A DNA stretch of 64,000 nt from Bispira polyomma (GCA_965649765.1 OZ287752.1:27094001-27158000), one strand, 5' to 3'. Counted from the stretch's first letter, positions 11,183 to 20,188 are shown. The notes: generated by a model not told the origin, from the sequence alone. A program made the numbers and translations.

Positions 11183-11443
11183 GGGGGCCCCGGTGGCCTA
11201 GTGGTTAGCAAGTATTGCGCTTCACAATCACTTGTCTCTCACCTCTGGGATCCGCTGGCGTGGGTGTGACTCCCGTCGATGCCTTTTGGAAAAGGTGATA
11301 GTTCCTTACTGTGGGCCACTGGTTTCAGTGCAGAACCTGGATCAACTCTATGCAATGTTTCCTCCAGCGTTTCCAACTACCCATACCAATATTTCCTAAA
11401 CAGGTACTAGAGTGGACGTTAAATATCCCTATTCAAATTCAAA
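11183..11443 (+). mobile_element. Young tRNA-derived SINE (family A), TSD TTCTTTCT(G/A)TATCT
   Basis: A-box GGTGGCCTAGTGG, (AAATTC)n tail, TSD 11169-11182 / 11444-11457. Confidence 0.93.
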
Positions 11444-11465
11444 TTCTTTCTATATCTATTTGTAG

Positions 11466-11554
11466 CCCCTGAGGTGGTGAAGAATGAACGCTATTGTATG
11501 AGTCCTGACTGGTGGGGTCTTGGCTGTATACTCTTCGAAATGATTGAAGGAAAG
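11466..11554 (+). CDS. GRK5: GRK exon D ([30 protein letters not shown])
   Basis: ttgtag|CC...AAG|gtgagc; APE and DWW motifs. Confidence 0.97.
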
Positions 11555-12181
11555 GTGAGCTTTACTGATTTCTATTAGAATTGTAGTATGTCATTTGCAT
11601 TAACTGTCGCCCACACAGACTTGATGCAGCAGTCAGTGCATCGAAAAACTAATTTTAACCAAATAAAGTGCTGTTACGTACCTAAACTCAACTATTTTGA
11701 TTAGGTTTTCCGCCATACATAACTTTAAATTTAAATGTAAGGTTGACATAAAGCTACAATTTTACATATCTTATTATATATATTTTCCTTGGTGACAATG
11801 TACTTCTGGGGGTGGATACTAAAATTCGGCAAACAGTAGCGAAAGTTAGCCATAAGTAAAACCAGGTATACTGTAAACCAAGTAAATTAGTTACTCGAGG
11901 GGTTGTTTTAACTTAACAATGGCCCTATCCTACTATCCTATTTGTGGGACTACAAATTTTTGACCACATAAAAGAGCAATCGACTTAAAGAGGCTTAATG
12001 GGGCTTAAAGGGGTTTGACTCTATTTAATGTTGTCGTTGATTTGAACTCAAAGAAACTGATTTTCAGATGCTATTTCTTCAGAAATAAATTCTATTTAAT
12101 TGTTTTCAAAATCTAGCTCTCATCTGTAAAACTTGGAAGTAATGATTTACTTTTAAATTTCTATTTGTGACTATTTTCCAG

Positions 12182-12301
12182 GCCCCGTTCAGAGCACGCA
12201 AGGAAAAGGTCAAACGAGAGGAAGTGGACAGACGGGTGAAGTACGACCAGGAAACGTACACGAGTAAATTCAGTGAAGACAGCAAAAGTTGCTGTATGCA
12301 G
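12182..12301 (+). CDS. GRK5: GRK exon E ([40 protein letters not shown])
   Basis: ttccag|GCC...CAG|gtgtgt; [13 protein letters not shown] is diagnostic of GRK4/5/6. Confidence 0.97.
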
Positions 12302-12813
12302 GTGTGTGTTACTTACAATAGTGTATAGTCAATGTTTTTTCTAAATCAGTTCCATTCCAGTTTTCAGTCTAAATGTTTTAATGTCATGTGACAATATTAG
12401 CTAATGCTTATGTTAGAATTTTCATACATAAAACATTTTGGTAAAAAATGGTCAAAAATTCATTCCTTGTGGACCATTCAATTGATGTAGTTATTTGATA
12501 AACATCGTAGTTTCTTGTTCACTTGAGTTATGTTGGCCTAGTAATTAGTAGCATTTCCTTCACAATCACTGGCCTCTTACCAATGTAGGTTCAAATCCTG
12601 TTTGTTCCTTCATGTGGGCAAGTTTGTCAGGTACTTGCCATAGGGTGGTGGTTTACAGTGCTTCACTGGTTTTTTCCACCATTGAATCTGGCCGTTGTAA
12701 TTTGGCCTAAGCGGTTGAAAGCACCATAAAAGTCTATTCTAAATTCTATACTGTACAGATACAGAGGAAGTCTTGCAAAGTACTTGAGTTTTATATTTCT
12801 TATACTGCACATA

Positions 12814-12988
12814 CAGTTAAACCCCTTTAAGTCCAACCTCAAGGGACCAGGAATAAAACCTCTACTTAAGCAGGATTTCCACTTAACAGAGTAGATTTTA
12901 TAGGAAAAGGCCTTCATGGGACTTCAAATTTATCTCCACTTAACAGGGAAAATGACTTAGCAGAGTTCTACTTAAAGGGGTTAGACTG
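12814..12988. mobile_element. Tc1/mariner-like MITE family 2, TIR CAGTTAAACCCCTTTAAG (others ~7977-8128, 11870-12020, 23980-24150, 24842-25017, 27405-27602)
   Basis: TA|CAGTTAAACCCCTTTAAGT ... ACTTAAAGGGGTTAGACTG|TA. Confidence 0.85.
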
Positions 12989-13066
12989 TAGATATATATA
13001 GGAAGTCTCACTTCATTGACTTCATTTTTCACTTAAGTTACACATTTATACTCTATTTTTATCCAG

Positions 13067-17834: not shown

Positions 17835-17972
17835 CCGCGCGCAGTGTATTGTAAAGATGTACTTGACATTGAGCAGTTTTCCACTGTCAAAGGAGTTAAT
17901 CTAGACGCCAGTGATGATACTTTCTACAGTAAATTCAGCACAGGGAGCGTCTCCATACCCTGGCAGACAGAG
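17835..17972 (+). CDS. GRK5: GRK exon G ([46 protein letters not shown])
   Basis: ttgtag|CCG...GAG|gtaggt; includes [11 protein letters not shown] with the Ser/Thr pair autophosphorylated in GRK5. Confidence 0.97.
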
Positions 17973-18489
17973 GTAGGTCCTCTTGGTGTTGGTTTTAGTC
18001 ACCTGACGACGAGTCATGTGACTGATGACATTGTTTTAGAACTCCTCCACTTCACTCCTTAGCAACACTTGTTTGGATGTTTAAAATTACAGTAAAAACC
18101 CTCATATAAGGAACGCTCATGGGACCAAACCAAATTGTTCACTATAAACAGATATTCACTATTTCGTAGGTACTGTACAATTCGCCAATATCAAAATGTG
18201 ACCGTGTTCACTGTCGGAGGTTTTCCCTACACTTTGTATAAGCCGAATGTCCAATCACCTCCCGTAGGATTTAGTTCACCTTCAGGCTAATTTCTACTTA
18301 GTGTGAGAAATCTAAAATTGGCCACTGTATCTGAAATTGGCCACCCCTAAAATTTAAGCTAAATTAATAAAAAGTGGCGAAATATAACTGGAATTTGGAT
18401 GACTAAGGCAAAATAATCACAAAAATCTTGATTTCAGCAAATATTAACCACAATTCTACCCAAAACACATTTTCTGGGCGGCCCTGTAA

Positions 18490-18665
18490 TAAAAAATTTT
18501 TTTTTGCAATATTTTTTTGGGGTCATAAAATTTTTTTTTTTTTGCAATATTTTTTGGGGTCATGAAACTTTTTTTTTTAAATTTTTTTTCGGGGTCATAA
18601 AATTCTTTTTCTTTAATATTTTCTTTTGGGGTCATCAACTTTTTTTTTTTTTGCAAATTTTTAAT
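18490..18665. repeat. Minisatellite, about four ~35-38-bp units (AATATTTTTTTGGGGTCATAAAATTTTTTTTT)
   Basis: GGGGTCAT recurs at ~18519, 18556, 18592, 18629; lies within a larger HINE-like repeat (~18230-18890). Confidence 0.85.
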
Positions 18666-19694
18666 TTTTTTCTTAAAAAATCGCTCTCTCGCCATTTTTG
18701 GCGGCCAACTTGAATTTCTGTGTTAAACGCAAAAACGCGTTTATCTCTGAAGCGGTGCAAGATAGAGTGATTTTGGCCGAATTTTGGGCCCAGAGGGTAT
18801 ATGCAGAGTAATCCACACGATTTTCATAAAAATCGCTCACCCACCATCAAAATACATTTAACGTCACACAATGTCTCATTGGGACGCTTTGTTTTTGCTG
18901 TACAAAAACAATTTCCTTTCATTTGCAAAGCAGTACTCTAGTTTATTCTAGTATTTTTTATGTAGTGACCAGAAAATTGGTTCTAGTTGTGGAGAAGTTT
19001 GACTTATACTGGTTCTAGTTACAATAGTCCGCTGTGTAAGGTTGTACAGTAATAGTGTATAACAAGTGAATGAAATAGGAGCAGATAGTTATTGTACGTG
19101 CCCATATCAGCATTCCCACAGCCATGGAAAACAAAAGTGGTTATGGAAAAATTCGGGAAAAGTCATGGATTTTTTTGTAGTCTAGATAAAATTGTATATG
19201 GTATAACTGTGATAAAATGTTGGGTTTAGGAAATTTTTTGGTGAAATTGATTCCATTTTATGTCTTTTAATAGACATTTTATAATCAAATGTCGCAAAAT
19301 TCAATGATTATATATGCATTGAAAATTTCCTTAGGAAAAGTCATCAATTTTTTTTACCTCCCTTTTCTGTGGCATTCCTGGATGAACTAAATCTGATTTA
19401 AAATTTAACTGTGTCGATTTTTCTATTTTATTGAGCAGAATACTTGGTGTTTATTTTTTGACCTAATTCAAGGTGAACAAAACTAAAAATCACCAAATAT
19501 CTAAAGTTTGCCATCTAAAATATACAAATTATAGGAGAAAGACATGTAGTTGTAATAAATTATTAGTTGAAAAACAAAGTAAAAAACTGGTATTTTTTAA
19601 AATGTATGAAAAGTAACACACTTAGTAAATTTTCGAAATGTGTGTGAGTTTTTCCATTCCTTACTGTACAAAGTTTGCATTGTTTATTTTTCAG

Positions 19695-19832
19695 ATGATA
19701 GAGACTGATTGTTTCAAAGAACTAAACCAGTTTGGTCCTGATAATAGTCCAACCCTTGACCTAGTGGAGGACCCTCCCCCTACTCCCCCTAAAGATGGCT
19801 TCTTCAGAAGGTTGTTCAAAAAAAAACAAAAG
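19695..19832 (+). CDS. GRK5: GRK exon H (MIETDCFKELNQFGPDNSPTLDLVEDPPPTPPKDGFFRRLFKKKQK)
   Basis: tttcag|ATG...AAG|gtgagc; ends in a basic amphipathic membrane-binding helix like GRK5/6 (GFFRRLF). Confidence 0.95.
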
Positions 19833-19939
19833 GTGAGCATATACGCTGACTTTACCACAGAACCGAATTATTATTAATATTTTATGTTATAAATAGTCTT
19901 TCAACTCTTCCAAATTACATTTTCCTGTCATTCATTCCT

Positions 19940-20188
19940 TGAATTTGGATGTTTAACGTCCACTCTAGTACCTGTTTAGGTTATATTAGGACGGGTAGTT
20001 GGAAACGCTGGAGGAAACACTGCATACAGTTGATCAAGGTTCTGCACTGAAACCAGCGGCCCACAGTATGGAACTACCACCTTTCCCACATAGGCATCGA
20101 CGGGATTCGAACTCACGCCGCCCAGAGGTGAGAGACCAGTGATTGTGAAGCGCAATGCTTGCTAACCACTAGGCCACCGCTTCCCCCG
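19940..20188 (-). mobile_element. SINE family A, perfect 14-bp TSD TGTCATTCATTCCT
   Basis: Reverse complement of other copies; TSD 19926-19939 / 20189-20202. Confidence 0.95.

Follow-up and report, generated by a model that had tools for sequence, protein, structure and literature searches.

An inverted SINE pair around exons 11–15 of a GRK gene

The window, that is, the whole 64-kb stretch of Bispira polyomma DNA analysed here, carries part of a GRK gene whose start lies ~17.8 kb further upstream. Three homologues, mapped to the window together with 200 kb of flanking sequence, yielded a gene of 16 exons with an intact frame of 569 aa. Exons 8 and 14, the latter (17835..17972, + strand, 138 nt) equivalent to GRK5 residues 469-514, both match GRK5 best, followed by GRK4 or GRK6 and then GRK1, and the best full-length match among the proteins compared is from Capitella teleta (77.8% identity), with other lophotrochozoans next. 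By these matches, the gene is a member of the GRK4/5/6 subfamily (invertebrate Gprk2/GRK5-like), and the protein encoded here is without unusual features for that subfamily.

Five exons of this gene, labelled D–H in a preliminary description of the locus and corresponding to exons 11–15, are central to our analysis. All are on the + strand: besides exon 14 (G), these are exon 11 (D; 11466..11554, 89 nt), exon 12 (E; 12182..12301, 120 nt), exon 13 (F; 13067..13201, 135 nt), and exon 15 (H; 19695..19832, 138 nt). Each is bounded by AG and GT as that description had it, and the lengths (89+120+135+138+138) add up to 620 nt. The AG at 11464-11465 and the GT at 19833-19834, belonging to exons 11 and 15 of the 16, form a canonical pair of back-splice sites. 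Based on comparison of homologue C-termini, the predicted terminal coding exon (21337..21357, + strand) encodes DRVSNT-stop; use of an alternative terminal acceptor at 21416 (+ strand) would give RHLGCLRAATIIGRIT-stop.

Four copies of a SINE family, denoted family A, may bear on the splicing of these exons. Copy a (11183..11443, + strand) resides in intron 10, with its 3′ end 22 nt before exon 11, and belongs to an older subfamily characterised by a 6-nt insert; its B-box-like segment is altered. Its boundaries are fixed by 14-bp target site duplications (TSDs) with one mismatch, of which the left (11169..11182, + strand) was once part of the original polypyrimidine tract, and the right (11444..11457, + strand) is the present polypyrimidine tract of the exon 11 acceptor. 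Copy b (19940..20188, − strand) starts 107 nt past exon 15, in intron 15, between perfect 14-bp TSDs (19926-19939 and 20189-20202); it is a young member of the main subfamily, 97% identical to many genomic copies, and contains a donor-like site on the + strand at 20128. The flanking introns thus contain reverse complements, which are 87% identical over 255 nt and lie 29 and 106 nt from the respective splice sites. The positions of both copies are as previously described, as is their common family, but the view of a and b as members of one young family needs amendment, given that their subfamilies differ and only b is young. Further downstream, copy c (22212..22472, + strand), the best predicted partner of b, is followed in tandem by copy d (22497..22765, + strand), which has the same target site as c and is the second competitor for b. 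Past the terminal acceptors, an ATTAAA motif is found at 22137, just before c, and the first AATAAA at 23221, beyond both c and d. Judged by these poly(A) motifs only, c and d are probably within the GRK transcript, c probably in its 3′ UTR.

Abundance of family A and relationship of copies a and b

Family A, with a length of ~250-260 nt, has the properties of a SINE: it is short and high-copy, ends in a simple-repeat or A-rich tail, and generates TSDs, with TSD-like repeats of at least 9 nt (median 13 nt) found at 23 of 38 copies. Motifs resembling A and B boxes were recognised by eye in the alignment, by comparison with the box consensus; ARAGORN detected no tRNA gene, and Rfam produced no tRNA match at E values up to 1. 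A sub-threshold Rfam match to SCARNA7 falls on a GT repeat and was taken as chance. The family may resemble the MetaSINE superfamily, in which a 66-bp Meta-domain follows the tRNA region. Eight copies are found in the window, and matches of at least 150 nt number 16 in the 264 kb around it, equally divided between the + and − strands (eight each); half of these (8/16) lie no more than 10 kb from a copy in inverted orientation. Sixteen matches of this length (23 of any length), or 1 per 25 kb, were also recovered from 40 hand-spaced 10-kb stretches, taken at round coordinates on 14 chromosomes, which by extrapolation corresponds to about 41,000 copies in the genome.

The 6-nt insert of copy a has no counterpart in b, and the two are 87% identical (blastn). 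Few of the 38 copies are as diverged as a (mean identity 88.7%), and b is close to the young main subfamily. As a partner of b, copy a occupies only the 27th place of 28 by identity and the 23rd of 28 by duplex energy, in a ranking over 28 other unselected copies from which nine copies picked for their likeness to b were left out, and of 406 copy pairs, 80% match each other as well as or better than a and b do. Furthermore, none of the rare alleles, 24 in a and 12 in b, is common to both. Repeats selected as a pair would match better than random copies or share derived changes; neither was found here, and co-evolution or gene conversion of the two copies was rejected on the low rank together with the lack of shared rare alleles. 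The same observations, along with the different subfamilies, fit two insertions made at different times, and a and b were likely inserted independently and neutrally. The base composition of the TSDs (A 0.29, C 0.21, G 0.17, T 0.33) gives no sign of a T-rich insertion preference that would account for the position of copy a. Contigs from three sequencing runs, compared with positions 8000-22200 and 19150-19966, include one per run that continues from exon 15 into copy b without a break or a free end at the TSD, and, among the matches listed, the right TSD of a is spanned by a contig (11414-12587) in two of the three, the piece from the third starting at 11501; these runs come from one study, possibly the source of the assembly, and contigs drop variants, so that they bear weakly on insertion polymorphism.

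Chance expectation of the geometry

When two copies are dropped uniformly into the 15 introns of the GRK gene, an inverted pair bracketing any exon arises with p = 0.45, and the probability falls to 0.019 when the copies must be within 500/500 nt of the splice sites, to 1.8e-3 within 150/150 nt, and to 2.6e-4 within 30/110 nt. Inverted pairs are ordinary, and it is the closeness to splice sites that is unusual. Scaled to a genome assumed to have 20,000 genes of 7 introns, and with cut-offs set after the locus was seen, the expectation is 1-2.5 genes at 30/110 nt, 8-17 at 150/150 nt, and 84-193 at 500/500 nt. The geometry is rare locally yet within the chance range of a genome scan, in which a few such cases are expected without selection. 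Other repeat families add further chance cases: the GRK gene itself has two more complementary pairs that lie no farther than 170 nt from splice sites.

Branch point and acceptor of exon 11

The insertion of copy a fell within the exon 11 polypyrimidine tract, at a distance of 8 nt from the exon, a circumstance missed in the preliminary description. The putative branch site in use before the insertion, a YTRAY motif at 11147..11151 (+ strand), would have been located at about −41; following the 275-nt insertion it is at −316, with 12 AG dinucleotides between it and exon 11, and hence the present branch point is likely supplied by the SINE tail. Candidate branch adenosines are found at 11421, 11422, 11435, and 11441 (−45, −44, −31, and −25 relative to exon 11), all within the tail of copy a and within an AG-free zone (11412-11463), although these are motif guesses, and 6 of the 15 acceptors of the gene have no YTRAY. 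The pyrimidine content of the exon 11 acceptor is normal (16/20). The predicted a–b helix extends to 11436 and ends 29 nt short of exon 11; three of the four candidate adenosines would fall inside it, and the fourth 5 nt outside. Pairing of a with b may thus hinder this acceptor as much as it brings the exon 15 donor near. In the ZKSCAN1 minigene study, the minimal working intron measures 87 nt, of which 40 nt are Alu, and 47 nt remain for the branch point and acceptor (PMC4201285); these 47 nt compare with 29 nt from helix to exon here.

Competition for copy b

A comparison of the 15 introns, extended 5.6 kb downstream, gave 36 reverse-complement matches, of which b–c ranks first (343 bits), a–b second (309 bits), and b–d third (290 bits); a–b is the best intron-to-intron complement of the gene, the next one scoring 118 bits. 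Co-folding of 11183-11443 with 19940-20188 bears out the anticipated duplex, with 227 predicted bp, −417.5 kcal/mol, and a longest helix of 42 bp between arms 8.5 kb apart. The possibility, also raised previously, that b pairs instead with c or d is the better supported one: the predicted b–c duplex surpasses a–b in energy (−456.6 kcal/mol) and in its longest helix (80 bp), with the arms 2.0 kb apart, and b–d is predicted at −414.4 kcal/mol, c and d being 2.0-2.3 kb downstream of b. Copy b is thus predicted to pair better with c, which is four times nearer than a. For cross-exon pairing, b–c would be the stronger and nearer duplex, but a is transcribed before c, so that retention of intron 10 could let a–b form ahead of it. 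The ranking by energy is weakened by the ZKSCAN1 minigenes, in which 30-40 nt with mismatches are enough for circularisation and hairpin stability is no guide to circle yield (PMC4201285). The 227 bp predicted for a–b are far above the length sufficient in those minigenes.

The b–c and b–d duplexes would each comprise ~230 bp over the last intron and the probable 3′ UTR, and may serve as substrates for A-to-I editing. Matches to the A_deamin family are present at five places in the genome (17 exon-level matches), which makes editing plausible, albeit the family (PF02137) includes non-ADAR enzymes and does not separate ADAR from ADAD/ADAT1. In this respect the locus resembles inverted Alus under ADAR, as covered in a review according to which both competing repeats and ADAR change or reduce circularisation (PMC5042038).

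Possible consequences for GRK transcripts

The back-splicing architecture put forward in the preliminary description is consistent with the layout and with the standing of a–b as the top intron-to-intron complement, but b–c scores higher, nothing points to a and b having been maintained as a match, and the predicted duplex lies over most of the candidate branch points. We consider it most probable (roughly 0.65) that a and b are a chance inverted SINE pair forming a minority duplex, with at most a low-level by-product circle. Intron 10 would usually have been removed by the time transcription reaches b, 8.5 kb further on. Should intron 10 linger, a and b could pair, but c and d would contest b, c being the better match, and the a–b helix, lying over three of the four candidate branch adenosines, should hinder the very acceptor that back-splicing requires. 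The dominant double-stranded RNA would then be b–c across the terminal acceptors, a likely substrate for A-to-I editing. Consistent with a by-product, a five-mammal study describes TE-driven circles as largely splicing by-products of young TEs (PMC8516420).

That efficient a–b pairing instead drives a 620-nt circle of exons 11–15, abundant in some tissue such as neurons, appears unlikely, even though the arms of this top intron-to-intron complement are both near splice sites, its 227 predicted bp occur in a geometry that is rare for the gene (p 3e-4 to 2e-3), and the relevant studies report that short imperfect repeats are enough in minigenes (PMC4201285) and that mammalian circles are usually driven by dimers of young TEs (PMC8516420). 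Weighing against such a circle are the better and nearer competitor c, the duplex over three of four candidate branch adenosines, the strong linear acceptor that follows the exon 15 donor at 1.5 kb, and the lack of any sign of co-adaptation between a and b. The junction of the predicted circle translates as ...KQK-PLRW-stop, in agreement with the earlier reading, and the longest ATG-led ORF, of 200 aa, is devoid of the Gly-loop, catalytic Lys, catalytic loop, and DLG; rolling-circle translation was rejected, as 620 is not divisible by 3 and stops occur in all three circular frames. Distinctly unlikely is the opposite extreme, in which no SINE duplex matters because co-transcriptional splicing takes out intron 10 beforehand and cleavage at a poly(A) site near 22137 keeps c and d from the mRNA, leaving the copies inert. 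The intact GRK frame, the normal pyrimidine content of the exon 11 acceptor, and the ATTAAA just before c agree with inert copies, but the first AATAAA is beyond d, and b and c, being 2 kb apart, would both be present in the nascent RNA before cleavage.

In another scenario, the a–b duplex would mask the SINE-supplied branch point and loop out exons 11–15, joining exon 10, which ends at 7362, to the terminal exon at 21337 or 21416 in a TBXT-like manner. The candidate branch adenosines inside the duplex and the precedent of an inverted Alu pair causing exon skipping in TBXT (PMC10901737) speak for this outcome, and the computed skip products are truncated, kinase-dead proteins of 394 or 362 aa with the stop in the last exon, possibly accompanied by a lariat-derived circle. 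Nevertheless, such skipping is highly improbable: in TBXT, a 1.4-kb pair beat a 4.2-kb pair, whereas here an 8.5-kb loop faces a 2-kb competitor, and both intron 10 and the exon 10 donor would have to stay uncommitted for ~14 kb. Least to be expected, and hardly more than conceivable, is an RNA-structure switch in which a took over the exon 11 branch point on entering the pyrimidine tract, pairing with b, inserted later, makes the constitutive acceptor switchable, and competition of a, c, and d for b is tuned by A-to-I editing, so that, under the same slim odds, GRK transcripts would be split into full-length, exon 11–15-skipped (kinase-dead), and circular forms.

Comparison with known systems

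In the chance-pair reading, which we favour, the locus still shares much with exonic circRNAs produced by Alu or SINE pairs. As described in the studies on ZKSCAN1 (PMC4201285) and mammalian TE dimers (PMC8516420), those systems have inverted copies in both flanking introns; the likeness extends to repeats near the back-splice sites and to several canonical internal exons enclosed between them. Here, by contrast, the SINE is lophotrochozoan, a stronger competitor is located downstream, and the case is known from the genomic layout alone. The AluSx1–AluY pair responsible for skipping of TBXT exon 6 (PMC10901737) is similar in combining an older and a younger SINE of different subfamilies in inverted, exon-flanking positions, and in having competing partners at different distances. 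It differs in that one exon, 1.4 kb, and experimental proof stand against five exons, 8.5 kb, and sequence prediction alone at the GRK locus, and in that the nearer pair dominated there, whereas here the nearer pair is the competitor. According to one study (PMC11481361), bivalve SINEs are commonly found in intronic and palindromic arrangements. In a literature search covering mainly open-access papers, we found no study of SINE-pair splicing in a lophotrochozoan, no paper naming a GRK4/5/6 circle, and no direct precedent for SINE insertion into a pyrimidine tract.

Taken together, the layout is real and of a kind known to promote circRNA formation, but it is likely neutral, with little or no consequence, and the circle is a candidate. 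The locus represents one defined candidate among the tens to hundreds expected by chance from a 40,000-copy SINE, and its main use is as a test locus for the question of whether duplexes near the branch point promote or block back-splicing. If the circle or the skipped isoform were true, control of splicing by SINE pairs would extend to a lophotrochozoan and touch a central GPCR-desensitising kinase; if the structural switch were true, it would be a TBXT-like case in a lophotrochozoan arising from a non-Alu SINE.

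SINE family A and related repeats around the GRK gene

The subfamily of SINE family A that carries a 6-nt insert, an older group that includes copy a in GRK intron 10, is clustered locally near the window: it accounts for 6 of the 16 family A copies in the surrounding 264 kb (five flagged by pattern and one by eye) and for none of the 13 full-length family A copies in the distant samples, 40 hand-spaced 10-kb stretches on 14 chromosomes (L031-L070). Family A copies c and d, predicted competing partners of the antisense copy b in GRK intron 15, lie in tandem at one target site (22198-22780), with the same target repeat of 11-13 nt found 5′ of c, at the c/d junction and 3′ of d; this site itself falls within another repeat starting near 22017. 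In its 5′ part, an older, second SINE-like family matches family A; all four of its listed copies (3730-3835, 10309-10508, 12534-12730 and 26095-26185) are on the + strand and display weak predicted pairing with copy b (~50 bits).

Further inverted matches within GRK involve a second short repeat family. One, between 4540-4712 and 13293-13472, brackets exons 9-13, and another, between a position ~2 kb before the window and 13292-13463, brackets exons 7-13. Both are weaker (88 and 81 bits, 70-72% identity), and their arms lie at most 170 nt from splice sites.

Possible alternative GRK transcripts and neighbouring genes

Judging from splice-site motifs, a segment of copy b could be exonised between GRK exons 15 and 16: the copy contains a strong donor-like site at 20128 (+), preceded by AG sites at ~19969 and ~19980. 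The putative exon would carry an early stop in both frames, as read by eye. For the terminal exon, motif-level candidate acceptors at 21337 and 21416 (+) would yield alternative C-termini, one short (DRVSNT) and the other containing Cys. Both kinds are present among homologues, an arrangement reminiscent of GRK6 splice variants.

Convergent to GRK is an LHPP-like HAD phosphatase gene (~35470-40600, - strand), one intron of which harbors SINE copy e (38540-38799), ~300 nt past a donor. Farther downstream, a long open frame (62831-64000, +) putatively encodes a rhodopsin-class GPCR, by eye reminiscent of a neuropeptide Y/F receptor.
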